Below, in pieces: positions 6,694-52,233 of a stretch of DNA of 52,632 nucleotides. Under the pieces are notes generated by a model, which was not told where the DNA came from, ran no database searches, and saw only the letters and a list, made by a program, of their open reading frames with translations. The stretch is taken from the IMG/VR virus record IMGVR_UViG_3300006162_000018, positions 1 through 52,632 of that record; one strand, written 5' to 3'. This stretch comes from a virus. Taxonomy: Duplodnaviria; Caudoviricetes. Numbering within the stretch: the stretch's first letter is position 1; each line of letters starts with the position of its first letter. The position numbers and the translations under genes are program-made.

Positions 6694-6749
6694 TGCACTG
6701 CACAACGAACATATAAGGAACGCACGCACAGGTAGTGCCGCGCCGCCCC

Positions 6750-6967: not shown

Positions 6968-6973
6968 AGCGGC

Positions 6974-17604: not shown

Positions 17605-17605
17605 C

Positions 17606-35710: not shown

Positions 35711-36500
35711 TGGGCTCTACGATTTTTCGCTCAGCAACGGCGAGGTCGTGCTGGAAGCGTTCTCACGCTGCCAGATCCGCGCGACCTCACTGACCGTTTA
35801 TCACATGCGGGACGCCTATCGGTCGCAGAACCTATGCCTCCAAGCCTGGGCCAACAAGGGCGTCAATCTCTTCCAGCAAGTTCAGGGCGTCGTCCAGCTT
35901 GTCGTCGGGCAGGGCACTTATCTGATGCCCGACAACATCGTGTCGATCACCGATGCCTACTACAATACAATCCTCTCGACCGGACCTGGACCGGATTGGG
36001 ATGCTCCGGTCAACGACTGGCTTGAACCGCAGGTATCGGCCGATCCACAAGTGGTGATCACTCAGAGCCAGGACCGCTGGCTGATGCCGCGAGGTCGCGC
36101 CGACATCGCGATGATCCCGAACAAACAATATGATGGCTTGCCGACTATCTACTGGTTCAACCGGTTGGGGCCGCCTGGCCAGACCACGCTTACTTTCTGG
36201 CAGCCGCCACTATTCGGCTACCCGCAAGCCGCAGTCACCTATTTTGCGTTACGACAGATCCAGGACGCCAATCTCGCGAATGGCGAGACACCTGACGTAG
36301 CGAACCGCGCGCTTGACGCGCTGTGCGCCGATGTGGCCTTCCGTCTGGCTCGCAAATATGCGCCGCAACTGATCGGCGCTCCGAATACCGGTGGCTTGCT
36401 CGACGACAAGATGGAATCGTGGGCGTTGTTCGCCGCCGAGGATACCGAGAAGGCCGAGGTGTTCATCGCACCTCGGCTCGCTGCATACTGGAAAGTGTGA
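35661..36500 (+). CDS. Putative head completion / adaptor protein
   Basis: SGLYDF...EAFSRC...WANKGVNL...IPNK...RQIQDA...A.ED.E pattern. Confidence 0.7.
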   Translation: MSQRRNPVPQGVPGTPSGLYDFSLSNGEVVLEAFSRCQIRATSLTVYHMRDAYRSQNLCLQAWANKGVNLFQQVQGVVQLVVGQGTYLMPDNIVSITDAYYNTILSTGPGPDWDAPVNDWLEPQVSADPQVVITQSQDRWLMPRGRADIAMIPNKQYDGLPTIYWFNRLGPPGQTTLTFWQPPLFGYPQAAVTYFALRQIQDANLANGETPDVANRALDALCADVAFRLARKYAPQLIGAPNTGGLLDDKMESWALFAAEDTEKAEVFIAPRLAAYWKV

Positions 36501-36504
36501 TCTG

Positions 36505-37248
36505 ATGGGCTGGGCTGATCGCGCTGGTCAGGCTACGGTCGATCCGCAAAGGCCACGTGCCTTCGGTGTGTGCGACGACTGCGGAGAATGGTACAATCGG
36601 CACAATCTCCGTGATCAATACGAGTGGTACGGCGCCGAGCTGACGGATACGCATCGGCGCGTCTGCGCTCGATGCCTTTCCAAGCCACAGGATCAGCTCC
36701 GTCCGATTTTGCTGCCGCCCGATCCGGTTCCGATCATTGATCCACGCCCGGAATATCCTAGCGTCCTGCAAAATCAGAATGGGTTTTCGTACTACGTCGG
36801 CCCACAAGGCACGACCATTATCAAACCGGTCGTCGCCGAACTCGACCCGACGATGCCGCTACCCAACAAAGCGGCGGTGCTGGCATCGGCTGCGAGTGGA
36901 TGGGGCGAGCCGATGCCGGCGACTCTGATCGACCGCGGCGGCACGATCACGCTCTCTGGCGTTGGGCAGATGATCACGGCCCCGAACCCTGCGCGTACCT
37001 ATCTCTTGCTGTTCAATCCGGCGTCTGGGCTCTTGGCGGCAGCGCAGGGCATGCCGCCGGTCTTGGGGATCTCGTCCGCCAATGTGCTGTCTCCAACCCA
37101 GGCTGAGACTGGGACGATCTTCGTGGGAACCGGATCAGGAGTGCTGCAAAACGGCACGAAGATTCCTCCGGATCCCGTATGGCTAGGTTCCGTTTGGGTG
37201 TTGGGCTTGATTCCCGGCCAGCCGTTCTTCGCTTGGGAGAATGGCTGA
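36505..37248 (+). CDS. Zinc-finger (CxxC...CxxC) virion morphogenesis protein with C-terminal beta domain
   Basis: VCDDCG...VCARC...PQ.QL...DPVPIIDPRPE. Confidence 0.65.
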   Translation: MGWADRAGQATVDPQRPRAFGVCDDCGEWYNRHNLRDQYEWYGAELTDTHRRVCARCLSKPQDQLRPILLPPDPVPIIDPRPEYPSVLQNQNGFSYYVGPQGTTIIKPVVAELDPTMPLPNKAAVLASAASGWGEPMPATLIDRGGTITLSGVGQMITAPNPARTYLLLFNPASGLLAAAQGMPPVLGISSANVLSPTQAETGTIFVGTGSGVLQNGTKIPPDPVWLGSVWVLGLIPGQPFFAWENG

Positions 37249-37694
37249 TGCGCTGGTTGGCACTCTTCCTCTTGCTGATCTCGACGCCGGCATGGGCGAC
37301 AAGCTCGATTGACCCGAATCAGCCGGCCGGGACAACTTATACCTCGGAACCGACCCGGAACAATTTCGCGGCTTTTGCCGCCGATGTGAATGCCCAGCAG
37401 AATTGCAATCGCGGTTCTATCCCCCCAGCCAATCCGCAAACTGGATATTGTTGGCTGAATGTCCTGAGTCCGACGACATATTGTTATGAAGTTTATTCTG
37501 GCTCGGGGTGGGTTCCGGTTTTTGCGATGTATCCGACGACCAATACTGTGGCTATGGCCGTGCAGCTACCGATTACCGCCCAGGCGATATTGACCGATGA
37601 TTCAGGTAGATATCTGCTGACCGATCCTTCAACGGGCTCCCTGCTCACTACTCCTACGACAACATTTTCGGTGTGGCAATGCGTCGCGCAGTGA
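37248..37694 (+). CDS. Signal-peptide-bearing tail-region protein (paralog of 39533)
   Basis: MRWLALFLLLISTPAWA|TSSIDPNQP...RNNF...GYCWLN. Confidence 0.75.
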   Translation: MRWLALFLLLISTPAWATSSIDPNQPAGTTYTSEPTRNNFAAFAADVNAQQNCNRGSIPPANPQTGYCWLNVLSPTTYCYEVYSGSGWVPVFAMYPTTNTVAMAVQLPITAQAILTDDSGRYLLTDPSTGSLLTTPTTTFSVWQCVAQ

Positions 37695-39487
37695 TTGCAT
37701 TCCTGACGTTGTGGTGCGCTATTGTCTTCGGTCCTTCGGACGGACGCGCACAGAGCGCTTGTCCCGCGCCGCTACCTGCCGGCACTCTATGTTTCCCGTT
37801 TCCAGCCTACACGAATGCGGCGCCTCCTGTCACGACGCCCGCGTCAACCGATCGGACGCCCTACGTGCAGGGTTCGGTGACCCATTTCATCGGGCCGTGG
37901 GCGGTGAATGACGTTCGCCAATGGGGAGCGGTGGGCGACGGCGTGACGGATGACTCTGGTCATATCCAGGCCTGTCTTAGCGCCCAGCCGCCGGGCGGTT
38001 GCTTCGCCGGGGGCAAGCGGTATTTCATCGGTAGCGGCGTGCAGATTCCAGCCGGTTCGACCTTGGACTGCGGCTATGGGATGGGAGACCTCGGCAGCCA
38101 TACCAGCACACAGAGCAACCTCAACATCTACCCGGCGCTTCTGCTGACTCCAGGCAGCGGCGAGATCACCGCCAGCGGCCCCTCGGCTCGGGTCAAAGGC
38201 TGCCTGATCCTCAACAAGAACCTGACCTTTCCGGTGGCGGATAGCAGCGGCTTCGCCGGCATCGCCGTCGCCGATAACGGAAACGCTAGTTTCAATGTGG
38301 TGGATAGCGAGATCCTCGGCTTCGATACTACGATCTGGATCACCGGCAACCGGCCTTACTTGCAGCATCTGATCCTCGATGGTACGGGGATTTCAAAAGC
38401 CGCCCTCGAAATTGATGTCGGTAACACCGATAGCGGTATCGCCGACGACGTTAAGATCCAAACTGGGCAGTCTGCACCGTTTAGTTGCCCGAACGGCGAG
38501 CGCCCAGGTACAGGGGTACGTGTGGCCGGGACGCCTATCGGCGCCGCCGGCATTTTCATGAACAATATCGTCTCGCAGCCGTTTCAGACGGCTGATTACG
38601 AGTTCGATAATTCGGTGATTGCCCAGAATATCTGGGCAGACGGCGCTGGGATTGCGTGTGGTTTTGGCAGTTCAATCGGCGTTCTAATCAATAATCCCGG
38701 AGCAACCGTACAGATCGATACCCTGACGGCCGGGGATATGAATGTGCCGCTGGCGGTCAAAAATGGGTTGCTGATCGTAAACCAGATTTACGCGGAGTTG
38801 GCTGGCAGCGACGGAATCGAAGTAGGAACAAATTCGACCGCAGGACAAATATATGCGACGCAAGTTCAAATCGTCAGTGTAGGTCGGGTGAGCGGATATG
38901 GAGTTAACTTAGAAAATGTAAACTCTAGGTTCTCTGCAAATCAGGCAACCATCCTTAGCGCCAACGGTTCCGCGGCCCCGTATGTCGCCAATACCTCCGG
39001 CTCCAATATGTACATGGGTGGGAGCGGGAACAAACAAAACCTAGTTTACATCGGCAATCTTCGCACGGATCTATCCGTCACCACCAGCCCCTATAGCACT
39101 AATCTGTTCGCTGGAACGGGCAGTGACCCGATGCTGGCCGGGCTGAAACCCTCTCCCGGACCGATATGCAGCGACGTTGGTAGTGGCGGTACGTGCGCAT
39201 TGGATTCATCGAATAGTGACCAGAATGCTGGCACGCTTGTCATTACCGCCGGGTCGGGAGCCTTGGCGGCGGGCGAGTTCGATCTCGCGATGCCGGTTAG
39301 TTTCGCCTCTGGTCAGGCGTGTGTTGCTGCTCTACAGGTTGGAACCGGCGTTTGGGATCGCTTGGCCGGTTTTACCGTTGTGGGGCCATTGTCCGGGAAC
39401 GTCGTGGCCTTCGATTGGTCAAACAATAGTGTCAACCTGACACCGGGCGAGACCTATAAATTCGCGTACAATTGCCGCCCGCTATGA
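37679..39487 (+). CDS. Tailspike-like beta-helix (pectate-lyase-3-like) protein with signal peptide
   Basis: MRRAVIAFLTLWCAIVFGPSDGRA|; DVRQWGAVGDGVTDDSGHIQ beta-helix cap motif. Confidence 0.8.
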   Translation: MRRAVIAFLTLWCAIVFGPSDGRAQSACPAPLPAGTLCFPFPAYTNAAPPVTTPASTDRTPYVQGSVTHFIGPWAVNDVRQWGAVGDGVTDDSGHIQACLSAQPPGGCFAGGKRYFIGSGVQIPAGSTLDCGYGMGDLGSHTSTQSNLNIYPALLLTPGSGEITASGPSARVKGCLILNKNLTFPVADSSGFAGIAVADNGNASFNVVDSEILGFDTTIWITGNRPYLQHLILDGTGISKAALEIDVGNTDSGIADDVKIQTGQSAPFSCPNGERPGTGVRVAGTPIGAAGIFMNNIVSQPFQTADYEFDNSVIAQNIWADGAGIACGFGSSIGVLINNPGATVQIDTLTAGDMNVPLAVKNGLLIVNQIYAELAGSDGIEVGTNSTAGQIYATQVQIVSVGRVSGYGVNLENVNSRFSANQATILSANGSAAPYVANTSGSNMYMGGSGNKQNLVYIGNLRTDLSVTTSPYSTNLFAGTGSDPMLAGLKPSPGPICSDVGSGGTCALDSSNSDQNAGTLVITAGSGALAAGEFDLAMPVSFASGQACVAALQVGTGVWDRLAGFTVVGPLSGNVVAFDWSNNSVNLTPGETYKFAYNCRPL

Positions 39488-39532
39488 GACTGATAGCGTT
39501 CGTCGCCAATCCGCTGGGTCATTGAGGAGCCA

Positions 39533-40006
39533 ATGCGCCGCGTTTCCCCTTTGATCGCGGCAGCACCGATCGCATGCTTGGTCCGCGCGATCGTCATCAT
39601 CGTCGCCGTCCTGGTCCTTGGCGTGCAGCCTTTTGTTGCCAAGGCCAATAGCACGATCAACCCGGCGATGCCTCAATCCGGCGTGCCCTACAACTCAGTT
39701 CCGATCAGAAACAACTTCCAAGCCGGCGCGAACGATATCAACGGTTTGCAGACCTGCAATCAGGGCGCGACGCCCCCCTCGGCCCCGAACACCGGATATT
39801 GTTGGCTGAACACCAGCAATTCGGCGCTTTGGTGCCGCGAAATCTACAACGGCGTGTTGAGCACCTGGACGCCGGTCTACGCGATAAATCCGATCACGCA
39901 ACAGGTTACGTTTGGGTCGTGCGCCGTCACCCCCTCACTAGCCTTGGGGTTGTACTCTGGTGGAACGCTGGGTCTCTATAGTGGAGGGTCGCTTGGCTTA
40001 TATTAG
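39533..40006 (+). CDS. Signal-peptide-bearing tail-region protein (paralog of 37248)
   Basis: GAGGAG RBS; hydrophobic leader ending VAKA|NSTINPAMP...RNNF...GYCWLN. Confidence 0.75.
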   Translation: MRRVSPLIAAAPIACLVRAIVIIVAVLVLGVQPFVAKANSTINPAMPQSGVPYNSVPIRNNFQAGANDINGLQTCNQGATPPSAPNTGYCWLNTSNSALWCREIYNGVLSTWTPVYAINPITQQVTFGSCAVTPSLALGLYSGGTLGLYSGGSLGLY

Positions 40007-42710
40007 ACGGACTCTCTATGGGGCGCTGGTTGCCCTGGTCTCGGCTGGTCCTGCCGCGGCTCAGACAACGACCCTTGTGGGGAATATTGCGACACCGACG
40101 ACGGTGCCGATGGTATCCTTCAACAATTGTTTTTATGTCGGGCAGGGAGTTAGCGGATCAACCGGAACCGATACCAAGCTTTGTGCGAGCACAGCGGCTG
40201 GCTGGGCGAACGCTTTCGGCTTGGCGCCGATTACGACGATCGGTTCGGGACTAACTCTCAGTTCCGGCGTCTTAGCGGCAACTGGCGGCGGCGGGACGCC
40301 CGGCGGATCAAATCAAGCTGCACAGATCAACAGCTCCGGCTCCTTTGGCGCGATCGGCCCCACAGCGAGCAACCTCTTTGGCTGGAACGCATCGGGGATC
40401 GCGACCCCAATCGTGCTGGGAACGAATCTATCGCTGTCAGGCTCGACGCTGAATGCCACTGGCGGCAGCGGAACGCCGGGCGGGTCGAACGGCCAGATTC
40501 AGTATAACAATTCCGGCGCGTTTGGCGGCTTTACCTTCAGCGGCGGCATGACGGTTACGCCATCAACCGGCGTTGTCGTGCTTGGCAATCCGGGGCCTTC
40601 CACCCTCGGCGGAATCGAGAGCATCGCGCAGGCTGCCGGCGAGTTCGTTCAGTACATCGACACATCCGGAGTCCCGCATCTGGCGACGCCATCCGGCGGC
40701 GGTAATTTCAGCGGCCCCGGAAGTGCTGTCTCCAATGACCTCGTCTCGTTCAATGGCACGTCCGGCACCGTAGGCCAGGATAGTGGCATTCTCTCGACCA
40801 ACGTCGTCACCGCGGCGGCCACGCTAACTTCAAATGCCCTGACCTTGGGCGGCGGCTCCAAGGCAGTTTCCGTGCTCGGGTCTCTCGGCACGACGACGAC
40901 CTTGCTGCATGGCAACGGCGCCGGCCCACCATCCTTCGGCGCGGTTGTCCTGACGACCGATGTGAGCGGCGTCCTGCCCCTGGCAAACGGCGGGAGCAAT
41001 GCGGCCCTGACGGCAGCCGCTGGGGCCGTCCCCTATTCCACAGGCAGCGCGTTGGCATTGCTGGCCGCCGGCACGTCGGGGCAATTCTTAGAGTCTCAGG
41101 GCGCGGCCCCGCCGATTTGGGGCTCGCCTTCCGGTTCAGGCACAGTCGGAAGCTGCTCGACGGCGGATGCGCTGGCCTACTACGCCGCGACAGGAACGAC
41201 GACTAGCTGCTTGGCTGGCGTCGGCACTTCGGGGCAGGTGTTGACCAGCAACGGCACGGGCGTTGCGCCGACATTCCAGGCCGCTGGCGGTTTCACGGCG
41301 CCCACGCTTTCCCCCGGCTTGGCTACGACGCCGGGAACCTACAATGCCGGCGCGCAAACTCTTACATCAGGCAGCACGCTGTCGCCGCAGATTTTCTACA
41401 AGGCGGAAACATCGAGCTGCACCCTCAACTCGACCTGCAATTCGCCATCGACAAACGACACGGCTCTGTTGCCGACATTCACCAATGCGAGCCTGACGGG
41501 GACTCTGCCAAATCCGAGTACGGTGGGTTCTGGCTCGTACCAGATCGGCTATGACGGCACTCACAGCTATTCGGTGACGACGGTCGGTGGCACCGCCAGC
41601 ATCTACGGTTGCGGCACGCCCGGAACGACGGTCTCGGGAATCGCCTACCAGACTCAGTTCGTTACCGACGGCACGAATTATCAGTGCATCCCGAGCGGCG
41701 CGAGCAGTGGTTCCGGCGTGACCAGCGTCGGGCTGACGGTCCCGGCCGCGTCGATCTTCGGTGTCACGGGATCGCCGGTTACGACGAGCGGCAATCTCGG
41801 GCTGACAACGACCGTGACCTCGGGCGGTGTACTCTATGGATCTTCTGGGACGCAGGTCGCGTCGAGCGGCGCACTGACGGTAAATGCCCTTGTCAAGGGC
41901 GGTGGGGCTGGGACGGCTCCAAGTCCCTCGTCCGTGACAGACAACGGCACGATCGTAAATGCGAGCGCCGAGCCTATCCAAGTCGCTCAGGCATATTCGA
42001 CTCCGGGCGCTCTGACCGATGCGTCAACGGTCGCGGTGAACGCCGCTCTCAGCAACAATTTCACCTTGCTGATGACTTCCGGGATCGGCGCGACCCGCGC
42101 GTTGGGCAATCCGTCGAATTTGGTTGCTGGGCAAGTTCTGAACTTCGTCGTCACTCAGGACCCTACAGGCGGCCGGTTGCTGACTTTCGGGTCGGATTAC
42201 ACGGGGACCATTGCCCTGAATGCCGGGGCAAACGCGGTAACGCCGTTCTCGTGCGTGGCAAACACCTCCTCGACCTTGCAGTGTGCGGGCGGGGCCTCGA
42301 TCACTCCGGCCATCGCGCAAAGCTCTCCGTCGAACCCGACCGGCACGACATCGACGACGCCGGTCATGATGGGGCTCGCCGGCACGCTGACCCCACTTTA
42401 TAAAACCCGCATGTTCGTCTCGATCCAAGGGACGATTGCCAATTCGACGATCTCCGATGGGGCGACGGTGCGCTGCTATTTCGGGACGAGCACGGCGCCG
42501 ACCAATGGTGCCGCCCTTACCGGGACCGCGATCGGCTCGGCCCGCACAAACTCGACGCTGATCGCCGGGGCCGGGGTGCCGTTCTCATGTGGGGGCTGGG
42601 TGACGGGCCTCACAGCCAACACGGCATACTGGATCGACGCGGCGGTTGCTGCGGTTACGGGCGGGACGGCCTCGATTACCGCCGTCGATATCTCCGCAAA
42701 TGAGTTCTAA
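39993..42710 (+). CDS. Tail-fibre-like protein with signal peptide
   Basis: TTG start after GGAGG: MAYIRRTLYGALVALVSAGPAAA|; fibre repeats GTPGGSNGQIQYNN, GTSGQVLTSNG, VLPLANGG. Confidence 0.8.
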   Translation: MAYIRRTLYGALVALVSAGPAAAQTTTLVGNIATPTTVPMVSFNNCFYVGQGVSGSTGTDTKLCASTAAGWANAFGLAPITTIGSGLTLSSGVLAATGGGGTPGGSNQAAQINSSGSFGAIGPTASNLFGWNASGIATPIVLGTNLSLSGSTLNATGGSGTPGGSNGQIQYNNSGAFGGFTFSGGMTVTPSTGVVVLGNPGPSTLGGIESIAQAAGEFVQYIDTSGVPHLATPSGGGNFSGPGSAVSNDLVSFNGTSGTVGQDSGILSTNVVTAAATLTSNALTLGGGSKAVSVLGSLGTTTTLLHGNGAGPPSFGAVVLTTDVSGVLPLANGGSNAALTAAAGAVPYSTGSALALLAAGTSGQFLESQGAAPPIWGSPSGSGTVGSCSTADALAYYAATGTTTSCLAGVGTSGQVLTSNGTGVAPTFQAAGGFTAPTLSPGLATTPGTYNAGAQTLTSGSTLSPQIFYKAETSSCTLNSTCNSPSTNDTALLPTFTNASLTGTLPNPSTVGSGSYQIGYDGTHSYSVTTVGGTASIYGCGTPGTTVSGIAYQTQFVTDGTNYQCIPSGASSGSGVTSVGLTVPAASIFGVTGSPVTTSGNLGLTTTVTSGGVLYGSSGTQVASSGALTVNALVKGGGAGTAPSPSSVTDNGTIVNASAEPIQVAQAYSTPGALTDASTVAVNAALSNNFTLLMTSGIGATRALGNPSNLVAGQVLNFVVTQDPTGGRLLTFGSDYTGTIALNAGANAVTPFSCVANTSSTLQCAGGASITPAIAQSSPSNPTGTTSTTPVMMGLAGTLTPLYKTRMFVSIQGTIANSTISDGATVRCYFGTSTAPTNGAALTGTAIGSARTNSTLIAGAGVPFSCGGWVTGLTANTAYWIDAAVAAVTGGTASITAVDISANEF

Positions 42711-42720
42711 GAGGATGACG

Positions 42721-43281
42721 ATGATGCTGAAAAGACTGTTCCTCGCATTTGCGTTGGTGCTCGCACTGGCGCAGGGCGCAAATGCTGCCAGCCGATCGGC
42801 ATGGACCGCAGGTAACGGGGTCGGTTATACATGGACCGCCGTAATGGCGTCCGGGGATATGACCTCGCTTGCCAACGGCAGTACAGTTCTATCGAGCGCC
42901 AGCTCGATCACAAACCAGACCGCTCAAGATCAGTTTATGGATCTTGGCGGGGTCTGGACTGTTGCCAGCGCAACGCCCCCGGCCGGCGCTTACATCGGCA
43001 TCTATCTAGTGCCTCTGAATAGTGATGGCGCGACGTTCGGAACGGGAGAAATGGCCTCCGGTTCGACCATCACTCGCGCCCCGGCTGCCGGTCTTGTTTG
43101 CAGCATGCCGCAAGAAACCGCCGCCGCCACAACGACACTCGCAGGAACTTGCACCGGGATCATCATCCCGCCCGGTAGCTTTAGGATCGCCGTATTCAAT
43201 GGCTCCGGTGCGGGGTTAAGTTCAACCGCGGGCAACAACACCCTGCTTTATCGTACCTACAATATCAACCTCAACAACTGA
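42721..43281 (+). CDS. Signal-peptide-bearing beta-sandwich protein
   Basis: MMLKRLFLAFALVLALAQGANA|ASRS. Confidence 0.75.
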   Translation: MMLKRLFLAFALVLALAQGANAASRSAWTAGNGVGYTWTAVMASGDMTSLANGSTVLSSASSITNQTAQDQFMDLGGVWTVASATPPAGAYIGIYLVPLNSDGATFGTGEMASGSTITRAPAAGLVCSMPQETAAATTTLAGTCTGIIIPPGSFRIAVFNGSGAGLSSTAGNNTLLYRTYNINLNN

Positions 43282-43285
43282 TCTT

Positions 43286-44221
43286 ATGGCATACCTTACA
43301 GGATATGCGTCGATCGCTCGACGCGCGGCATCTGGAGTAATCCCGAGCATTGCGACCAGTCATCCTTTAGCGCGGGGGCTGCTCGCCGCGTACTATCCGG
43401 CGACGGCTCCCAATGGTACATTGCAGAACCTCGTAGCAGGCGGCAACGGCAATCTGACGACGCGTGTTGGCGTTGCGGTTGGGCTTTCGCCAACTCCCGA
43501 GGGACCAGGTCTTCTTTATTCCGGCCAGGCGACAGCATCATTTGGCGGCGCATGCCCTTCGACATTTCAATTATCTTCCGGCCAATCTCTTTTTGTGAGA
43601 ATGAAACGAGGGCCAACCGTCTATCAAGGTGGGCATGTTGCTTATTTATTTGGGGTTGCGATTACTTCCAGTCCGTTCAATTGCTATATTATAGGGACGG
43701 GGCTGAACGGAAGCACGGGAAATGGGCAATTAGGACTATTGTACCAAACGACCGCTTCGTCTTACATCGGAACTGCCATACTGCCTCTAAACACGATGGC
43801 TTCTGCGGGAGCTACGTTTGGGTCCGGCGCTCCCGGCAAATTGTACGTGAATGGCGCACAAGATACGGTAACAGGTTCGCCACCAAATGTGAACATCACC
43901 ACTTACACTCCTAACCCGACTATATATCTAGGGCTACAGAATACGACCGACTCTGTCTATGCCACAATCACTGTGGCTTATATTTGGGGACGACCCCTGA
44001 ACGATGGAGAGCATCGTTATCTTGACGCCAATCCCTATTCGCTGCTGCGCTGGCCGGTTGATATCGTTTATGATACAATTGAAAATCAAACGACGGTGCT
44101 TCCATCAGGCGTGATCGTTAATAAACCCATGATTTTCTCCCCGTTGATGCTTGCGGGCGTCGGCGGTCTGGAGTGGCTACGAAAACGCAAGATCAAGATG
44201 CGGCAATTGCGGGGGCAATAA
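43286..44221 (+). CDS. LamG/concanavalin-A-like protein with hydrophobic + basic C-terminus
   Basis: HPLARGL, KLYVNG, AYIWGRPL; ends MLAGVGGLEWLRKRKIK. Confidence 0.7.
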   Translation: MAYLTGYASIARRAASGVIPSIATSHPLARGLLAAYYPATAPNGTLQNLVAGGNGNLTTRVGVAVGLSPTPEGPGLLYSGQATASFGGACPSTFQLSSGQSLFVRMKRGPTVYQGGHVAYLFGVAITSSPFNCYIIGTGLNGSTGNGQLGLLYQTTASSYIGTAILPLNTMASAGATFGSGAPGKLYVNGAQDTVTGSPPNVNITTYTPNPTIYLGLQNTTDSVYATITVAYIWGRPLNDGEHRYLDANPYSLLRWPVDIVYDTIENQTTVLPSGVIVNKPMIFSPLMLAGVGGLEWLRKRKIKMRQLRGQ

Positions 44222-46165
44222 GTGCGTCGATGGCTTCTTGCGGTTCTGCTGCTGCTGTTGTTCTGCGGGTCAGCCTCGGCGCGATTTCTACCCGGCGGCG
44301 GCAGCGCGCCGATTACGACCTACACGCCGCTGTGCGGCGGATCAAACCCGACGTGCATCTATACCTACTCGACCGAGCGCCAGATGGCCTCGACCGCGAC
44401 CACGGCGATCCAGGTATACCGCTCGGTCGATGGTACGATGCAGGATATCGGTTTCACCAGCGCCGGGCTGGTCAACACCGCAACCGTCGATGCATTTTGC
44501 AACGCCTCGGTCGGCGGGGTGATCTCGCGTAACTGCTTGCTCGCGCAGATATACGACCAGTCGGGCAACGCCTGCCCGATCTGGAACGCCAACGCTTCGA
44601 CTATGCCGGATTATTACGTCGATCCGGGGCATCAGGGGCTACCGCGGTTCCAGGCGGTGTATCAAGGCAGCGGCGCCGTATTCAGCTTCCTGCTCGACAG
44701 CGGCGGCACGACGCAGAACCCGCCCACCCATCATTGCGCCGCCTTGACCGGCCCGGCGCAATCCTTGTTCTTCGCCGGCAACAGCAGCTATGGGGCGTTC
44801 TCTTCAGGGCAGAACGGCCTCATGGAAGGTACGGTCGCGAGCGGGCCACAGGGCGCGATGTTCGCCGCCTTCACCGGACCTTCGGGATACGCCTACGATC
44901 ATTGTTTAACTTCGTCACCCTGCGGCGGCATGGATACAGAAGCGCAGGGGCCGCAGTACAATTATACTCGCACCAGCAACGATGATTTCATCGATATCGC
45001 TGCGGCTCCTACCAGCGGTAACAGCCCGTGGAACGTTTGGATCAACAACGTAAATGTCAGTGCGCCGTTCGCGCCCGATAGCGTGGTTGACGCGCTAGTG
45101 ACTGGGTTCCGCATGACGTGGGGCGCGTCCGGCGATCATTCTCAGCATGGGCCGAACATCGGGCGTTCTGAATCGTTCTACAACTCGGTTCTATCCTCGG
45201 GACAGGTAGCGGCGCTTTACAGCAACGAGACCAGCTTTGTTGCGGGACTGACGACCGGGTATGTCGGTCCCGGCGACAACGCGATCGCCGGCAATGAAAA
45301 CAGCTATTCGACCGGCCTCACCTCGCAAAAGGTGCTGCAATTGCAGTGGCTGTCGCAGTGCTTCTCTTTGCGCAAGTGCTATGCCGGATATGAGGGGCCG
45401 GCGCTGAACGCCTGCCAGGGCAGCGGGGCATGCGAGGATATCGGTTGGGTCAACAACATCATCGACACCGCGACCCTGAGCGCGTGGTGCGGGCCGGTGA
45501 GCGGGCTCAATAACTGCGCGGCGCAGATTTGGTACAACGAGGCGCTCAACCAAGCGAGCGACACCAACGGAGTCGGCACCGGGATCGACGCCACGGCGGT
45601 ATCATCGTCGAACCGGCCAGCGATCTTGTGGTCCGGCTGCGGTACTTCGGCGATCACGGTTTGCATCCAGACCAGCGCCACCAACTACTTCACCACAGCC
45701 GGAATCACCGTCACCGGCGGATACACGATGAGCGCGGTGGCGATGCGGACCGCGGGAACGAGCGCGAGTGCGATCCTTTCCTCGGTTTCGACCCCGGAGA
45801 CTTTCATCGGGTTTGGCGCGGCGAACACCTGCACCGGCAGCGCCACATCGGGCGGCGGCGCATCGACCGTGGCCTGCAACGACAATGTGGTTCACAGCAT
45901 TACCGTCGATGCCCACACGTCGCCCTCCGCATCGACGATCACCTATGCCGACGGTACGGCGGGAACGGCCAACATCTCGGCGATCGGCTACAGCGCCAGC
46001 GGGCTCGGCGTCGGCGCGACCGGCGCCGGACTCGACCCTTGCGCTTGCCAGTTGAGCGAAGTGCTGGTCTATACCGACGCGCACAACACCAGCTACAATA
46101 CGGCCCTTGGCTCATCGGGCGTCGCTCTCTTGCGTGCCAATCAGCGCGCAGTCTTCGGGTTCTAG
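44222..46165 (+). CDS. Secreted protein with two arabinofuranosidase-B (GH54)-like beta-sandwich modules
   Basis: MRRWLLAVLLLLLFCGSASA|RFLPGGGS; YSTERQM...QDIGF...AFC...CLLAQIYDQSGN; second copy FSLRK...EDIG...IWYN. Confidence 0.7.
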   Translation: MRRWLLAVLLLLLFCGSASARFLPGGGSAPITTYTPLCGGSNPTCIYTYSTERQMASTATTAIQVYRSVDGTMQDIGFTSAGLVNTATVDAFCNASVGGVISRNCLLAQIYDQSGNACPIWNANASTMPDYYVDPGHQGLPRFQAVYQGSGAVFSFLLDSGGTTQNPPTHHCAALTGPAQSLFFAGNSSYGAFSSGQNGLMEGTVASGPQGAMFAAFTGPSGYAYDHCLTSSPCGGMDTEAQGPQYNYTRTSNDDFIDIAAAPTSGNSPWNVWINNVNVSAPFAPDSVVDALVTGFRMTWGASGDHSQHGPNIGRSESFYNSVLSSGQVAALYSNETSFVAGLTTGYVGPGDNAIAGNENSYSTGLTSQKVLQLQWLSQCFSLRKCYAGYEGPALNACQGSGACEDIGWVNNIIDTATLSAWCGPVSGLNNCAAQIWYNEALNQASDTNGVGTGIDATAVSSSNRPAILWSGCGTSAITVCIQTSATNYFTTAGITVTGGYTMSAVAMRTAGTSASAILSSVSTPETFIGFGAANTCTGSATSGGGASTVACNDNVVHSITVDAHTSPSASTITYADGTAGTANISAIGYSASGLGVGATGAGLDPCACQLSEVLVYTDAHNTSYNTALGSSGVALLRANQRAVFGF

Positions 46166-46166
46166 G

Positions 46167-47840
46167 ATGCGCCGCCTCTTCGTGGCGCTCGCGCTTCTGG
46201 TGCTTGGTTCATCAGCCGCACCGGCAAGATTTTTGCCGGGTGGTGGAAGCGCATCGAGTGGCAGCGTCACCAACGTAATCGCCGCCGCGATCACTAACGA
46301 GAACGTGCCTCCTAGCTCGTCTCCGGGCTTTCAGATCGGTGACCTGAGCGCGACCGTGACCGGCGGCGGCCCTTGCACGACCTGCACCTGGACTATGATC
46401 AACACGGGCAGCGCGGCACAGGGCAACGGATGCGGAAGCCAAAGCAACAACTTCCAGGTTGCTAATTTTGGAAGCGGCGCTGCGCACTTAGAGGTGCTGA
46501 GCAGCGGCCTGACCGCTCGGATCTGGGGTGCGACGCCGACGGCAGTATCTTCGTCATCGGAAACATATATCTGCGCCAAGGCGACCCCAGCCGTGGGTGC
46601 GTCTTATGTGTTCGCGTTCTCGATCATCGTGCGCGCCCCGATGATCACCAGCGTCTCGCCGCGGAAGGTTCAGTACACACTAGGCGTGGCACAGTCGATA
46701 CCGCTCTCGGCGACGATATGCTGGACGAATTGCCACCAAGGCGGATCGGCGCCGACGCCGACCTTTACCTTGGGCAGCGATGCGGCCTGCACCGCGTCGG
46801 GCATTTCGATCTCCGGCTCAAGTCTCAATCTCAGCTCGTCCTACGCTGGCGCTGGCGTTTGTCACATTGTAGTTGCGGCGACTGGTGCGAACTGCGCGGT
46901 CCTCGGCTACGTCACGGCTACGCCGACGACGTGCAACGCGGCCGTTAATATCACGCAAGGGGCGTATGTTGGCCCCGGCGACGACTCGGCGCTCGCTGGC
47001 CTCACTTGGTATGTTTGGGCCGAGCCATACGCCTTCAGCGCCGCCTACGCGGCGGCTGGTGGGCCGATCTGGAAGGTCATCCGCGAGAGTGATCAGCAGC
47101 CGTTCACGATCAACGCCCTATCAAACGGCGACATGGACGTTGCCACCATGGCGACCGATTGTGACACGTCGATCTGCGCGCTGGATGATCCGGTGGATCA
47201 GAGTGGCAACAGTCCGGCGAACGATATACCGGCGTGGTCTAATAGTCACGGTTCCCCGCCACCCGTGACTATTTGGCATCCCATAGTATTGTTCAATAGT
47301 ATAAACGGCTCGATGCCGGCTTATAATTCCAGCAATCCTAATGACAGGCTACTGTATAACCCCACCACCTATACTGGCGCAGGAACAACGGGAACGCTTG
47401 GCATCGTCGCCCAAACAATCAGTGTCCCCGGATCTAATAGTTATTTGATGGCATTTAACGACGGGGTGACACCGGGAACATTCTTGTATTTTCCGTCATC
47501 TGGCAACGGCGGCGGTGCGGGCGTGTGGGTTGGGCCGCACAACTTCACCGGGGGAACTGGCATCCAGGATACAGCGCCTGCTGCGGGCGCGTTCCACAGC
47601 ATCATTGCAACCATCAACGGTACGAGTTCGATCCTGGATGCGGATGGCAATCAAACTACGGGAACATTGGGGACTGCGGCTATCAATAAGCCGGCAGGAA
47701 TATTTGGCGATTTCGGCGGCGGCTCCAATACGGGTAACGGCGTCGGCTTCTTTATCTTGGCGTCCGTTCTAACATCAACGCAACTCAGCGTCCTCTGCAC
47801 GTATGACCAGATAAATTTTGCGACGAGTGGGTCATGCTGA
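46167..47840 (+). CDS. Secreted protein with Ig/cadherin-like and AbfB-like modules
   Basis: MRRLFVALALLVLGSSAAPA|RFLPGGGS; YVGPGD linker; VIRESD...DQSGN. Confidence 0.65.
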   Translation: MRRLFVALALLVLGSSAAPARFLPGGGSASSGSVTNVIAAAITNENVPPSSSPGFQIGDLSATVTGGGPCTTCTWTMINTGSAAQGNGCGSQSNNFQVANFGSGAAHLEVLSSGLTARIWGATPTAVSSSSETYICAKATPAVGASYVFAFSIIVRAPMITSVSPRKVQYTLGVAQSIPLSATICWTNCHQGGSAPTPTFTLGSDAACTASGISISGSSLNLSSSYAGAGVCHIVVAATGANCAVLGYVTATPTTCNAAVNITQGAYVGPGDDSALAGLTWYVWAEPYAFSAAYAAAGGPIWKVIRESDQQPFTINALSNGDMDVATMATDCDTSICALDDPVDQSGNSPANDIPAWSNSHGSPPPVTIWHPIVLFNSINGSMPAYNSSNPNDRLLYNPTTYTGAGTTGTLGIVAQTISVPGSNSYLMAFNDGVTPGTFLYFPSSGNGGGAGVWVGPHNFTGGTGIQDTAPAAGAFHSIIATINGTSSILDADGNQTTGTLGTAAINKPAGIFGDFGGGSNTGNGVGFFILASVLTSTQLSVLCTYDQINFATSGSC

Positions 47841-50800
47841 TCCGGCGCTTGTTGCTGGTGGCGGCCCTGCTGATCGGGGTGGCACCCACTGGCTCGGCGC
47901 GGTTCCTGCTGCATAGCGGCGGTTCGAGTGGAACATCCTCGGGTGATGTTGCCAGCATTACCGAGCGAAACACCGGACCATCGACGACACCGGGCTCGAC
48001 TTTTCCCGCGCAATTTGCGGCAAACTTTGCACAGGATGCGGTTCCCGTCGGATCGATTGCCGTGCCGAGCATCGGCGGATCGTCGATTGTCTATCAGAAC
48101 GATTGCGCCGCCGAGGGTTGCCCGATGTGGCCGGCGCACGGCGCTTCGCCGGCATCGTTGAGGCAGGGGATCTTCTCGGTCATTGAGCCGCAGCTCGCTA
48201 GTACTTCTGAGCAGACCGCGCATTTCACGGTGACAGCCGGCTCCTACAATACGACGACAACCGTAACTCCGGCGTCTCTAGCCGCTCATGACGATTGGGT
48301 AATGACCCTGAATCATGTCAATGATTCCTGGGTCAACACTCATCCGGCGGCAATGAATGTCCCGCACGGAACCTATGTCGGCTGCTATGCGGACCCAACG
48401 ACGCACAGCATTACGAGTTGCGGGGTTCAACAGCACGCACCGACCACGACGAGTGGCCTGATTGGGCAGAACTGCTCAAACCAAGGGGCTGGCGCTTGTA
48501 CCGGATACACCTACCTAGCCGGCGTAGCTACAACCACATCCTCCACGCTCCCTAACACGATCTACTTCGACCCAACCGCGAGCCAGCCGTCATTAAATCC
48601 GAATTGCATCAATAACTGCGTGCGTATCGGATCGGTGGTAACCGACGCCACCACGAGCGGCGTGATCCCATCTTTGGCAACCGTGGCCCTCAGCGGCACG
48701 GGCTCGACGACGTCAACCTCGGCGGGCTCATTGGCTGGCGCGACGACACTTACATTCGCCAGCACTCCGACCGCGCCTCAATACGCCTTGGTTGTTGATG
48801 TAAACACTCCATCGGCAATCACGGCCGGGACTTATGTTTCAGTCACGCCGAGTTCGGGAACCGTGACGATCTCGGCGCCGGTTACTGGCCCTGGCGTCGG
48901 ATCTGGCGACACGATCAAGTTCTATACGTTCGTCCAGCTATCGGCGAACGTAACCGCCGGAGGAGTCGCACAGGGTGATAGCGTCAATTTCAGCTATACC
49001 GTGTTGGGCTCGACCGGGACGCCGGCGGCGATCAGCTTCAATCAGACAAACAATCTGGTCACTTCGGTTAATGTTCTTACGCCGGGTTCGGGATACGCGA
49101 CCGAGGGTAGCGGGACATGGGTATTCGATTTTAATACGATCTTGAATGAGTACGGCTCGACTCAGCCGCATCAATGCGATCAGGTTGGCGGAGCCGCGAC
49201 CTTTACCGGAACTGTCTCTGGAACGAGCCTCACATCATCGGCGGTGACCGGCACGATCTCGCTCTTGCAAGTGGTTACCGACTCCGCCACCCCGCCACAC
49301 ACTGCTTTGATCACCGCGGGCTCCGGGTCGAGTTGGACGGTCGCGAACGGCACCCTCGTATCTGGAGCCATGTCGTCGAATGAGCCTCTATGCATCTACG
49401 GTCAGGGCACTGTGGCGGCGAAGTACCAACTCTGGGGGCCGTACATCGACACGACGACTGGTGCGCGGCACCCGTGGCTCTATGGTCGCGGCACCATCGA
49501 GGCGTGGACCAATGGAACCGGCTCTATCGTCGAAACCCGTCCCGTCATGGGAACCACGACGGGAATGGTTTATGTCAACTCGGTAATCCCGAGCTACACC
49601 TTCGACGCTGAGTGGACCGATAACGGAACGACGGTGCGCGGGGCCTCGATAGGATCGTCTGGGTTCAACGCGATCGTACAAGAGAACAACGGCATTTGGT
49701 ATTCGGTTGGGACCACGGCCAACAGTCTCGGGCCGCCGCAGAGCGGTCGGCCGGATTGGAGCGCCAACAGCGATGCTTTCAACAACGTCATCCTAGCTTT
49801 CACGACACCAGACAAGGTGTTGTTTAAGGCGTCAGGTGCGCAACTGCCGCTTAACGATTGCCTGAGCGCCGGGCCACCCCCATCCAACTGTAGCGGGACC
49901 GCTGTTTCGGTAACGCCGGCAATCTTGCCGGCGATCTCGCTTACTAGCTGGGGCTCGCCTTCGACAATGGTGAATACCTACGTGCCGTACACGTTCGGCG
50001 GCATGGATACGAACCTTACCTTGTCGGGCGGCGGCAATCATTGGTGGTTTGGCCCGGTCCCAACGCACGCCATCTATTGGTACGAAAGCACCGATTGCTC
50101 GCCCGTAAGCAGCAGTTGCGACCGCGGCGCATCTTGGCTCAACAATCTTCGGGTTGCGTCGATAGCCGAGCTTGGCACGTTCGATGGAATACGGGAACCC
50201 GCTACCTACAATCCGGTGAACGTCGTCAGCGACACGTCAGTTTTCAGTAACCCAGCTTTCACTGATACAGTGAAAACAAAGTTCAATTTCCGTGGCGACA
50301 CGAATGTCTTCGGAACTGTATCCGGCGGGGCGTATCCACATAGTCTCGATAGATCACTTGACGATCCGACGCACTTCGTTCCTCTTCCGCCCTCTATGTA
50401 TGTCCTCGAAGGCGAGCGCTTTATGCTGGATGGCTTGGAGGGATTTACCTCTGGCGATCAAATACATTACAATCTTACCGGCAACAGCGGCGGCACTACT
50501 CTCGGCAGCGCCACGACGCTCACTTCGCTCGGCACGACGTATTATGGCATATTCCTGGATAATAGCCCGCGCGGTATGGGGTGGTCGTGGGATTCCCTGC
50601 GGGAAAACGCCACTCTTAGCCCGCCGAACGAGCCGATCGGAAAGTATTATAGGTTTCTACAGGAAGAGAACTATGACTTTCAGTTGGCCTTCATACCTTA
50701 CGTCGGAAGCGGAACCGTCGGCAGTAGTCTGACGTTTACGAAGGGATATGATCTCACAAATATCGGTCTATTCACGAGCCCTCAAATCCTTTCAACCAAC

Positions 50801-51952
50801 AACATAGCCCCACTGACAATCCTGTGGCAGGATTACTACTGGCACATGGGTGAGGAAGAAGGCGCCATGTTACAGGGCGTCGGCGGCTCAACAGCGGCGG
50901 CGGCGGTCGATAATATCATCCTCAATAATTACGCCGTCAAGAATCCTGCCGTGAACTGCGTCTTCAATGATCTCTCGTACAGCAATCTTTGGGCCGACGA
51001 GGCGACGCAAGTACCTAATGCTAATTGGGATGCGACCAATCCGGCGACGGCGACGCGCTTCAACGGCTACCGTAACACGACGATTACCGCAATCGGCGGA
51101 CAGTCCGAGGTTTCGGCGTCGCTATTTAATGCGGGATTTAGCGGCAATACTCAGATGACTGCCGCGACAACGGGTGCTGGATCGGCAGTCAATGTCACGT
51201 CTATCCCCGGCAGCGTATTGATCGGCGGCATCATTTACGATCAGACGACGCCGAGCGCTATCGTACCACCTGCGGGATCTAGCTTCGCATGGATTACGGC
51301 GACCGGCGGAACGACTATCACTATGTCGGGAACCACTACAGGCATTACGGCTGGCGATGTGATTCAGGTTTCAGCGAAATTGATTTATCCGCTCAACGGA
51401 GCTAATTCGGCCGCGATCCCTGGCGACAGCATAATTTCGCCGATCAACGCAGATACGGCGGATGAAGGGGTGCCAAATGGCTTTAATATCGGCACCTTTC
51501 CGCCACCGTCCACTCCCTCGATAGTAGGTGGCACGCACTATTATTGGTGTCCCGATCAAAACGGCCTCTCGGTCGGGGCGGCGGCTGGATATATCAGCAC
51601 GACGCACTGCGGGATCGCGAATAGCACCATGACGCCGATCATGTTCACGGGTGGCGTACCGGTCGGCGGCACTTCGGCAGTTAACCAGTTTCAGGTCGGC
51701 TGGGTTCCTAATCGAAGCTGCCCGACTGGTATTCCGGGGCAGTCCTCGGATTGGCAGGGTGGGTCCGAGATCGGCGGCACGCAGTCCTACGGACTCGAAA
51801 TGCTGGCGACCGTCAAATCCGACCAGGCCATCCGCGGCGTGACGGCCGACAACACGGCGGCGATCGCCAACCTCGCGCCGTACTGGCCGCCCTCGTCCCT
51901 GGCCGGGCTCCCGAGCTGGGCGACCTCGCAAACGCTGACGCCGGGTCCGTGA
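47834..51952 (+). CDS. Large secreted protein, possible polysaccharide-lyase-like helical domain
   Basis: MLIRRLLLVAALLIGVAPTGSA|RFLLHSGGSS; aromatic helical region PRGMGWSW...LWQDYYW. Confidence 0.6.
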   Translation: MLIRRLLLVAALLIGVAPTGSARFLLHSGGSSGTSSGDVASITERNTGPSTTPGSTFPAQFAANFAQDAVPVGSIAVPSIGGSSIVYQNDCAAEGCPMWPAHGASPASLRQGIFSVIEPQLASTSEQTAHFTVTAGSYNTTTTVTPASLAAHDDWVMTLNHVNDSWVNTHPAAMNVPHGTYVGCYADPTTHSITSCGVQQHAPTTTSGLIGQNCSNQGAGACTGYTYLAGVATTTSSTLPNTIYFDPTASQPSLNPNCINNCVRIGSVVTDATTSGVIPSLATVALSGTGSTTSTSAGSLAGATTLTFASTPTAPQYALVVDVNTPSAITAGTYVSVTPSSGTVTISAPVTGPGVGSGDTIKFYTFVQLSANVTAGGVAQGDSVNFSYTVLGSTGTPAAISFNQTNNLVTSVNVLTPGSGYATEGSGTWVFDFNTILNEYGSTQPHQCDQVGGAATFTGTVSGTSLTSSAVTGTISLLQVVTDSATPPHTALITAGSGSSWTVANGTLVSGAMSSNEPLCIYGQGTVAAKYQLWGPYIDTTTGARHPWLYGRGTIEAWTNGTGSIVETRPVMGTTTGMVYVNSVIPSYTFDAEWTDNGTTVRGASIGSSGFNAIVQENNGIWYSVGTTANSLGPPQSGRPDWSANSDAFNNVILAFTTPDKVLFKASGAQLPLNDCLSAGPPPSNCSGTAVSVTPAILPAISLTSWGSPSTMVNTYVPYTFGGMDTNLTLSGGGNHWWFGPVPTHAIYWYESTDCSPVSSSCDRGASWLNNLRVASIAELGTFDGIREPATYNPVNVVSDTSVFSNPAFTDTVKTKFNFRGDTNVFGTVSGGAYPHSLDRSLDDPTHFVPLPPSMYVLEGERFMLDGLEGFTSGDQIHYNLTGNSGGTTLGSATTLTSLGTTYYGIFLDNSPRGMGWSWDSLRENATLSPPNEPIGKYYRFLQEENYDFQLAFIPYVGSGTVGSSLTFTKGYDLTNIGLFTSPQILSTNNIAPLTILWQDYYWHMGEEEGAMLQGVGGSTAAAAVDNIILNNYAVKNPAVNCVFNDLSYSNLWADEATQVPNANWDATNPATATRFNGYRNTTITAIGGQSEVSASLFNAGFSGNTQMTAATTGAGSAVNVTSIPGSVLIGGIIYDQTTPSAIVPPAGSSFAWITATGGTTITMSGTTTGITAGDVIQVSAKLIYPLNGANSAAIPGDSIISPINADTADEGVPNGFNIGTFPPPSTPSIVGGTHYYWCPDQNGLSVGAAAGYISTTHCGIANSTMTPIMFTGGVPVGGTSAVNQFQVGWVPNRSCPTGIPGQSSDWQGGSEIGGTQSYGLEMLATVKSDQAIRGVTADNTAAIANLAPYWPPSSLAGLPSWATSQTLTPGP

Positions 51953-52233
51953 TGGAAGAGGGGCACGCGATGATCGTCGCCGGCACCTTGGCCGGGTTTG
52001 GGGCATTGGCGTGGTACGTGCGCAGCAGTGCCGCGATTCAAGCCAAGGCGATGGATAAACTCGCGGCGGCGATCGAGAAGCTGCGGGACCGCCTCGATAC
52101 CATAGGGGCTCCGTCCCGCGCGGAGCACAACCAGCTTGCGGCCCAGGTCAATCAGATCGCGCTGCGGCAGGTGCAGATCGGTACCGAGCTGGAAGAGCTG
52201 CGGCATTCGCGGCGCGAGGGGGATGGGGGGTGA
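51952..52233 (+). CDS. Membrane-anchored coiled-coil protein (possible lysis-module protein)
   Basis: One N-terminal TM segment then coiled coil. Confidence 0.55.
   Translation: MEEGHAMIVAGTLAGFGALAWYVRSSAAIQAKAMDKLAAAIEKLRDRLDTIGAPSRAEHNQLAAQVNQIALRQVQIGTELEELRHSRREGDGG

Follow-up and report, generated by a model that had tools for sequence, protein, structure and literature searches.

The fibres and tailspikes of ordinary tailed phages are not known to carry a signal peptide, and they fold in the cytoplasm; in the textbook account the assembly of tailed phages takes place wholly in that reducing compartment. Cleavable signal peptides are known from some phage-encoded proteins, among them lambda Lom and Bor and T5 Llp. 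In this study, we analysed the IMG/VR virus record IMGVR_UViG_3300006162_000018 (Duplodnaviria; Caudoviricetes), whose 52,632 bases are classed as linear with a CheckV completeness estimate of 71%; this complete stretch is referred to as the window. Its late operon is closed by a block of nine genes at positions 37248–51952 (14.7 kb, 28% of the record), numbered 1 to 9 here. Eight of the nine gene products start with a Sec-type leader, and all nine feature an even number of cysteines in the mature protein. Judged from sequence evidence, the block proteins are very probably exported and disulfide-bonded; that they are, in addition, the receptor-binding parts of the virion is in our estimate an evenly balanced proposition.

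Ordinary fibres and tailspikes, such as T7 gp17, P22 gp9 and the long and short fibres of SU10, share several characteristics with the block. Their genes also follow the connector gene and lie beside adaptor or nozzle genes, with several receptor-binding proteins per module, and the proteins combine a conserved N-terminal domain with variable distal parts and have beta-helix, ConA-like or tail-collar type domains. The Sec-type leaders, the cysteine-rich bodies and the even cysteine numbers distinguish the block from them. Exported accessory proteins of phages (lambda Lom and Bor, T5 Llp, T4 RI antiholin) resemble the block proteins in having cleavable signal peptides, and some are encoded in or beside tail genes, but they are small, single and not fibre-like, whereas the block is a 14.7-kb run of fibre- or tailspike-sized proteins. 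The T4 RI antiholin is described as an exported phage protein with a signal peptide in PMC8385771. Filamentous phages (PMC4823517) also use Sec signal peptides for virion proteins (pIII and pVIII), and the disulfides of pIII are made in the periplasm. These phages are, however, non-lytic and contain single-stranded DNA that is extruded through the membrane, while the window encodes a portal, an HK97-type capsid protein, a terminase and ejection proteins.

A further likeness exists to the MAT fibres of Bdellovibrio bacteriovorus, which, according to PMC10769870, have a signal peptide followed by a conserved N-domain of ~130 aa, a long fibre and exchangeable tips, in some cases with an S74 chaperone. 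The comparison is one of architecture. The MAT genes are chromosomal genes of the predator and their products are shown on its own cell surface, in contrast to the phage tail modules described here. In the openly accessible article texts searched, neither Sec leaders on the fibres of tailed phages nor a periplasmic maturation of such fibres was found to be described. Tail fibres and tailspikes as a kind are known, and it is the probably exported and oxidised form that would be new.

The eight leaders consist of a basic N-terminus, a hydrophobic core and small residues at positions -3 and -1, as had been proposed in the sequence-only reading of this DNA that we followed up; all starts and motifs were verified in the sequence. 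The predicted cleavage sites (arrow) are PAWA↓TSS, DGRA↓QSA, VAKA↓NST, PAAA↓QTT and GANA↓ASR in genes 1–5 and SASA↓RFL, AAPA↓RFL and TGSA↓RFL in genes 7–9. Gene 6 (43286–44221 (+)) is the sole block gene without a leader, which agrees with the same reading. Leaders were scored with simple rules of our own, namely a non-negative charge of the n-region, an uncharged core of 8–18 residues whose Kyte-Doolittle hydropathy averages 1.7 or more, and small amino acids at -1/-3. The eight block genes yielded scores of 4.77–7.4. Among 59 other, greedily chosen open reading frames (ORFs) of the window, eight gave any match, several of them at internal starts, and the top score was 4.69; the leader-bearing ORF 8743–9405 is left out of this comparison set, in which an antisense ORF took its place.

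Leaders of this kind could in principle be artefacts of wrong starts, of host DNA past a prophage end or of chance hydrophobic N-termini. The starts were indeed picked by eye and simple rule, the record is incomplete by the CheckV estimate, and a transposase fragment is possibly present at the window end. However, Shine-Dalgarno-like sequences are found 5' of the leader-including starts of genes 1, 3, 4 and 5 (in gene 4, GGAGG lies 5 nt 5' of a TTG start), and in genes 7–9 the start codon directly adjoins the stop codon of the preceding gene or overlaps with it. None of the downstream in-frame starts of the block genes has a Shine-Dalgarno-like site, and the next ATG of gene 7 falls past its conserved first cysteine pair. 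Starts downstream of the leaders, a pitfall named by the sequence-only reading, are disfavoured by ribosome-binding sites or coupling at the leader-including starts only. Its other concern, host DNA beyond a prophage end, was checked and is ruled out: the window is a virus record and relatives hold the same kind of genes embedded in their tail modules, the relative L031 with the same layout and the relatives L025 and L026 with such genes inside the module. In addition, leaders are conserved as a property across homologues and cysteine parity tracks the leader, as detailed below. The block is phage DNA, and an artefact, already largely refuted, is extremely improbable.

Two other classes of export signal were considered and rejected. 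Tat signals have a conserved RR before a weakly hydrophobic core, a long n-region and a basic c-region. Six of the eight window leaders contain RR, but their n-regions comprise 2–5 residues and their cores are strongly hydrophobic; among the leaders of gene 7 homologues, RR occurs in just 4 of 27. In lipoprotein signals, which are cleaved by signal peptidase II, the cleavage site is marked by the lipobox L-[AS]-[GA]-C. None of the eight leaders has a cysteine at +1, and LLFC↓G of gene 7 is a misfit.

The cysteines show a pattern that goes along with the leaders. The closely spaced pairs quoted previously were all recovered, CGGSNPTC, CLTSSPC and CQGSGAC in gene 7 and CTLNSTC in gene 4. The mature products of genes 1–9 contain 4, 12, 4, 12, 2, 2, 20, 14 and 18 cysteines, respectively, all even numbers. 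Cysteine accounts for 1.87% of the residues of the mature block proteins versus 0.62% in 21 other window proteins; those of the latter that contain cysteine divide into 8 with even and 7 with odd numbers. Genes 2, 3 and 7 each encode one cysteine inside the leader, so that the total is odd and becomes even once the leader is removed. Where an organism has a Dsb system, its exported proteins are reportedly marked by a bias towards even cysteine numbers, a relation that Dutton and colleagues are said to have described in 2008. Even numbers were found in the block as well as in the protein family described next, and conserved cysteine positions in gene 7.

Gene 1 (37248–37694 (+)) encodes a leader (aa 1–17), a fibre N-domain of ~85 aa and a short tail. 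Gene 3 (39533–40006 (+)) is its paralogue (49% identity) with a long leader (aa 1–38), and the two proteins have the domain after the leader in common. When 1.84 billion cluster representatives were searched with a profile built from both mature proteins, 226 proteins were obtained at E ≤ 0.001; the median length of family members is 594 aa. Among the best 150 of these 226 representatives, 128, including window gene 1, have an N-terminal extension of 16–41 aa (median 21) with a hydrophobic core, and in 127 of the 128 small -1/-3 residues occur at most two positions from the start of the domain. Seven of the 150 are leaderless; six of them show a (S/T)(S/T)(I/V) motif within the first 7 residues, meaning that the domain begins essentially at the N-terminus. 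The remainder comprises four truncated leaders and four long N-termini, both likely start-calling problems, and seven matches of a different kind, either internal or to repeats.

In this family, cysteine parity goes with the leader. The leader-bearing members with cysteine (n = 121) comprise 112 with even and 9 with odd numbers (binomial p 9e-24, a value that overstates independence given that the representatives, clustered at 50% identity, are related). Of the seven leaderless members, with 1–3 cysteines each, one has an even and six have an odd number. Most of the cysteines are located in the variable C-terminal parts, which are very diverse; pectate-lyase-like, beta-helix, collagen, Peptidase_S74 (1/70) or C1q domains were detected in a few of 70 members scanned. 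Conservation of the leader together with parity that tracks it gives good support for export and oxidative folding.

The N-domain has no family of its own in Pfam or NCBIfam. Its AlphaFold (AF2) model (pLDDT 79.9) gave no match to folds of the PDB at E ≤ 0.001, and the best matches in BFVD are proteins named tail fibre (E 5e-5 to 1e-4), with the tail-collar protein of Rhizobium phage P106B among the matches. A tblastn search of phages with gene 3 found nothing. In the window, genes 1 and 3 are short and each precede a long leader-bearing gene without the N-domain (2 and 4, respectively), while the two parts are fused in most family members. This arrangement suggests that genes 1+2 and 3+4 may be split anchor-plus-spike pairs whose products would assemble in the periplasm. 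Gene 2 (37679–39487 (+)) encodes a leader (aa 1–24) and a pectate-lyase-like beta-helix of the tailspike/depolymerase type, with a weak match to phrog_13893 ('tail protein'). Gene 4 (39993–42710 (+)) encodes a leader (aa 1–23) and an 880-aa repetitive fibre rich in Gly and Thr, which matches phrog_4757 and is 48% identical over 64 aa to a fibre protein of cyanophage PSS2.

A check proposed in the sequence-only reading was whether homologous phage loci keep the leaders, and this is the case for the homologues of genes 7 and 2 and of the gene 1/3 domain. Of 34 strong gene 7 homologues, 27 have a leader by the rule score; the other seven are six N-truncated fragments and one sequence (P0014) that begins within the leader. 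The leader sequences diverge freely, with the n-h-c layout kept. Even cysteine numbers were observed in 24 of 25 homologues of at least 636 aa with a scored leader, and 15 cysteines are invariant in the gene 7 alignment of 21 sequences. Relatives of gene 7 were not found in IMG/VR. Gene 2 has four N-complete homologues, with a leader scored in three and leader-like by eye in the fourth; two gene 2 homologues contain PF12708.

The opposite case, absence of both features, is the most telling one and was observed for gene 5 (42721–43281 (+)), which in the window encodes a leader (aa 1–22) on a 164-aa domain with a cysteine pair that flanks a loop. Its homologues in five prophages of metagenome-assembled genomes (MAGs) have 1–5 codons before the Met that is aligned with the predicted mature N-terminus, and are hence leaderless. 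All five also lack the cysteine pair.

The residues that follow the cleavage sites of genes 7, 8 and 9 (44282–44305, 46227–46250 and 47900–47923) read RFL(P/L)(G/H)(G/S)GG, and the leaders are paralogous. Most gene 7 homologues have (M/F)(M/L)xxGxG at the mature N-terminus. The conserved hydrophobic, Gly-rich motif at the mature N-termini of genes 7–9 might act as a docking peptide or else belong to the export signal. An internal Met-Met start ('GMM' after the leader in many gene 7 homologues) that would give a leaderless isoform is unsupported, as the window copies and several homologues have no Met there.

Whether such proteins are virion fibres can be approached through the gene order of relatives. 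Just 5' of the block lies a head-tail connector gene (35643–36500 (+)) whose product is 32% identical to that of a CDS named 'tail adaptor' in the metagenomic phage MW202675; homologues are present in the contigs L023–L026 and L031. It is followed by the gene of a leaderless Zn-ribbon-like protein (CDDCG...CARC; 36505–37248 (+)), which matches the MW202675 CDS 31909–32295 and could be aligned with homologues of L024, L025, L026 and L031. The Zn-ribbon protein has no match in Pfam or PHROG, and its gene stands immediately before the fibre genes in every relative examined.

In MW202675 and L024, both of the same phage group, ordinary leaderless fibres come directly after the homologous connector and Zn-ribbon genes. 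In L031, a close relative with an 82% identical capsid protein and the layout of the window, the Zn-ribbon gene is followed by a gene with leader and N-domain and then by leader-bearing proteins of 97, 1223 and 556 aa (4, 20 and 16 Cys). L025 has five consecutive leader proteins of 1017, 165, 466, 508 and 715 aa (6, 2, 12, 6 and 0 Cys), placed between the Zn-ribbon gene and homologues of the window adaptor and nozzle genes. In the same interval of L026, a leader-bearing 698-aa fibre (14 Cys) is the sole fibre-sized gene product. The pattern also occurs in L029, an unrelated, lower-GC, myovirus-like contig, in which baseplate hub and wedge genes precede a leaderless 263-aa tail fibre protein and then four consecutive leader-bearing proteins; the first of the four matches EPS-depolymerase and tail-fibre PHROGs, and an endolysin gene comes next.

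A cultivated example was found by tblastn with a member of the N-domain family. Bradyrhizobium phage ppBdUSDA122-1 encodes a J-like tail protein followed by WAX24264 (482 aa, 30-aa leader, 6 Cys) and WAX24263 (865 aa, 18 Cys), the latter being its sole annotated 'tail fiber protein' and having the leader MKLQRLLGAIGAVVMSVSTALA↓AEQ. Among the 60 CDS of this phage, other leader-like matches are lysis-region or small membrane proteins, and none of the remaining structural proteins has a leader. Matches to the C-terminal part of WAX24263 were found among the tail fibre or minor tail genes of 223 phage records. Leaderless relatives of this fibre region are found in Rhizobium phage RHph_N3_13 (2 Cys) and EBPR siphovirus 2 (1 Cys). 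The phage is produced as siphophage particles seen by electron microscopy, as stated in PMC10127595; in the main text of that paper the terms 'signal peptide', 'tail fiber' and 'proteom' have no occurrence.

Placement of leader-bearing genes in the tail module was thus observed in the window, L025, L026, L029 and ppBdUSDA122-1, and a relation to fibres or spikes in fold or sequence in the BFVD matches of the N-domain, the PF12708 domain of gene 2 homologues and the PSS2 fibre match of gene 4. In the sequence-only reading, the pattern was presented as a route of podoviruses, which is too narrow in view of the myovirus-like contig and the cultivated siphophage. The part of that reading which proposed export and disulfide formation is strongly supported by comparison, through conserved leaders and through cysteine parity. 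Its second part, the joining of the virion at or after lysis, did not gain the same standing; what speaks for it is gene position and the likeness of the N-domain fold to the N-termini of tail fibres.

Several observations weigh against the reading that the leader-bearing proteins are exported and become part of the virion. At the level of the leaders, the predicted +1 residue is Arg in genes 7–9, and Arg at this position is unfavourable to Sec export in E. coli. The leader calls were made with the simple rule score described above and not with a trained signal-peptide predictor. The Arg residues, together with the unusually long leader of gene 3, would also fit uncleaved signal anchors, maybe releasable ones like SAR domains, that keep the fibres attached to the inner membrane, on its periplasmic side, until they are freed by holin-induced depolarisation or lysis. 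This alternative is improbable in our estimate: small -3/-1 residues lie at the domain boundary in all but one of the 128 family leaders and leaderless relatives begin at that boundary, the leader cysteine falls outside the even count in all three window proteins having one, and the cores are rich in Leu, Ala and Val, whereas SAR domains have cores rich in Gly, Ala and Ser.

At the level of gene context, gene 7 homologues were found at 15 loci in seven MAGs of uncultured Alphaproteobacteria, with 2–4 loci per MAG in five of the seven. Six of the loci belong to prophages of the HK97 type, in which terminase, portal, protease and capsid genes are present; there the gene 7-5-6 cassette is located between portal and protease, in the head module and outside the tail module, with the gene 6 homologue after the gene 5 homologue in all six. 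The other nine loci are chromosomal islands with housekeeping-looking neighbours, no other window gene and no phage genes within 10 kb of the gene 7 homologue. Stand-alone homologues and a head-module cassette fit an accessory secreted protein. Moreover, a leaderless fibre-like protein is encoded in the window and a leaderless tail fibre protein in L029, so the virion could have a receptor-binding protein without the exported set. The window protein in question (15564–16187 (+); 207 aa) is fibre-like, contains the motif GGTGATTASGARDNLG and has seven weak PHROG matches named 'tail fiber protein' (E 0.001–0.007); it is a candidate for an alternative or proximal fibre.

These findings suit a role outside the virion, in which some or all of the block proteins would be exported and disulfide-bonded lectins and depolymerases, soluble in the periplasm or released from it, whose task is to trim or mask surface polysaccharide on the infected or lysogenic cell, with the virion using a leaderless fibre. 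The benefit could be destruction of the receptor, exclusion of superinfecting phages, easier release or lysogenic conversion. It is also in line with the resemblance of the gene 7 model to GH54-type glycosidases or lectins, and with a second exported surface-type protein encoded at 8743–9405. Exported bacterial proteins that are tailspike-like or fibre-like are known, for example Pantoea WceF (PMC7949094) and the MAT fibres (PMC10769870). We nevertheless regard a role outside the virion as the less likely one. More than a quarter of the record is devoted to the block, which lies exactly where leaderless relatives keep their fibres. In L026, the leader-bearing protein is the only fibre-sized one between Zn-ribbon and adaptor genes, and in ppBdUSDA122-1 the only annotated tail fibre bears a leader, with a C-terminus common to the 223 phage records. 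Leaderless family members start at the predicted mature N-terminus of leader-bearing ones, suggesting one docking function. Finally, a search of 301 sampled genomes from the class to which the gene 7 MAGs belong did not recover the N-domain.

Further features of the MAG loci were recorded. The six prophages (L002–L005, L013 and L016) are conserved, HK97-type and distributed over several of the uncultured Alphaproteobacteria MAGs. They encode a leader-bearing beta-helix protein of 839–854 aa between terminase and portal and a leader protein of 170–190 aa that accompanies the cassette between portal and protease, both unusual sites for fibre-like genes. The lone gene 7 homologues of the islands (L006–L012, L014 and L015) are in several cases split into 2–3 frames, and that of L008 is fused into a 1636-aa ORF. 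Genome G004 is among the MAGs with stand-alone homologues, and 11 matching pieces were found in one MAG. Genes 9 and 1 were not found in five MAG genomes with these queries.

The bodies of the proteins encoded in the second half of the block point to carbohydrate-binding folds in part. Gene 6 has LamG/ConA-like character (Laminin_G_3, E 0.003, below the cut-off) and a hydrophobic and basic C-terminal tail; the protein ends in a short hydrophobic stretch and then LRKRKIKMRQLRGQ, which is tail-anchor or PEP-CTERM-like and odd for a protein without signal peptide. The prophage homologues of gene 6 are longer (451–491 aa). Gene 7 (44222–46165 (+)) encodes a leader (aa 1–20) and a ConA-like/GH54-like body. 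The best PDB matches of its model, which has a moderate pLDDT of 61.7, are 1wd3 and 6sxt (E 2e-10, TM 0.34/0.44), and one distant sequence relative carries PF09206. Gene 8 (46167–47840 (+)) encodes a leader (aa 1–20) and a C-terminal ConA-like/arabinofuranosidase-B-like domain, for which most structure matches come from viral clusters that carry PF09206 or PF13385, with TM values by row of up to 0.83. In these comparisons both proteins resemble GH54 alpha-L-arabinofuranosidase B and ConA-like lectin domains, and the gene 7 product looks like a GH54-type glycosidase or lectin; unlike such enzymes, the window proteins gave no corresponding Pfam match. Gene 9 (47834–51952 (+)) encodes a leader (aa 1–22) and a 1350-aa body without family match in Pfam, PHROG and NCBIfam scans, and has a partial homologue at the end of L031. 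For the block proteins in general, Pfam and PHROG matches are weak and NCBIfam matches are absent.

The start of the next gene (51952–52233 (+)) overlaps the gene 9 stop. It encodes a protein of 93 aa whose N-terminal segment is hydrophobic and whose remainder is coiled-coil-like, its PHROG matches are weak and of unknown function in PHROG, and from its sequence it is possibly a lysis protein. At the extreme end of the record, an open-ended ORF (52493–52632 (-)) contains SDRLWSVDDIVALVEAAEAPAKKRGPY, which we take to be similar to the C-terminus of an insertion sequence (IS) transposase; this may explain why the contig ends here.

The remainder of the window is that of a tailed phage. It encodes a DNA methyltransferase (2551–4086), the large terminase (9784–11418), a tail adaptor of the SU10_adaptor family (12783–13505 (+); PF24175, E 2e-14), a nozzle-like virion protein (13847–15271 (+); phrog_3287, E 5e-37), an ejection protein with a phage tail lysozyme domain (17564–21253), the portal (24567–26807) and a Mu gpT/HK97-type capsid protein (31887–32795). 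The best portal match is MW202675 (39% identity), and distant kin are found in Pelagibacter phage HTVC023P, Roseobacter phage CRP-901 and several Caulobacter phages. Neither tRNAs in the window nor near-identical DNA relatives in the phage collection were found. A GNAT acetyltransferase-like gene (17110–17604 (+); phrog_1249, with Acetyltransf_7/1 below or near the cut-off) is situated between the tail genes and the ejection protein, and the same place is kept in L025 and L026. In these two contigs, the connector, Zn-ribbon and fibre genes form one uninterrupted series with the genes of the SU10-type adaptor, the nozzle and the ejection protein. The order in the window and L031 is different: there the fibres close the record, and adaptor and nozzle are encoded 22 kb upstream, ahead of the portal.

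Two further genes encode leader-like N-termini. The product of 8743–9405 (+) is a 220-aa protein with the canonical leader MKTLLTSTALALALASTAAHA↓TC and DUF4114 below the cut-off (E 1e-4). Its C-terminus (VVEPA, a hydrophobic stretch and RRGRRG) is PEP-CTERM-like and had no NCBIfam match at E ≤ 0.05; if the signal is real, the host would have an exosortase system. The other is a protein of 502 aa with the leader-like N-terminus MTKRALLAIGGLLLSVGGVSS, encoded at 5873–7381 (+) of L023, a short contig from IMG/VR that belongs to the same phage group. Its gene lies just 5' of the connector gene, on the opposite side from the fibre block.

For the export of fibres that end up on the virion, we propose the following sequence of events. 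The block would be the receptor-binding module of a short-tailed phage and provide fibres, a beta-helix protein that serves as tailspike or depolymerase, and tips resembling ConA-like lectins or glycosidases. Of the nine products, eight would be precursors with Sec-type signal peptides that are presumably cleaved by signal peptidase I. They would cross unfolded into the periplasm, where the Dsb system of the host would pair their cysteines, while heads and tails would be assembled in the cytoplasm as usual. The oxidised fibres would meet the particles only once the action of holin, endolysin and spanin has joined the two compartments, or later in the lysate, and would dock last, through their mature N-termini. 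In vitro, P22 tailspikes and T4 fibres can still be attached to particles that are already complete. Enzymatic members may act on the host's own surface polysaccharide during the periplasmic wait.

Taken together, we tentatively favour, at slightly short of an even chance, a so far undescribed and widespread branch of tailed-phage morphogenesis, in which Sec-routed, Dsb-oxidised receptor-binding fibres and tailspikes are added at or after lysis. It would extend over podo-, sipho- and myovirus types with Gram-negative hosts of soil and freshwater, and the leader would be a module that is gained and lost in co-evolution with the cysteine pairs.

If incorporation into the virion is confirmed, this branch of assembly would lie outside the textbooks. 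Phage ppBdUSDA122-1, which is spontaneously produced by Bradyrhizobium diazoefficiens USDA 122, offers a cultivable and harmless system for a direct test, and the signature of leader plus cysteine parity is a cheap sequence test for further fibres of this type. Annotation pipelines that count a signal peptide against a structural role would misfile such genes, and recombinant receptor-binding proteins or depolymerases of this type would need periplasmic or oxidising expression. For the biology of these phages, the proposed route would mean that completion of the virion depends on the host Sec and Dsb systems and on the lysis step, which would constitute a new class of host factors and possible targets of defence, and the periplasmic waiting stage would provide an easy way of destroying receptors on the infected cell.

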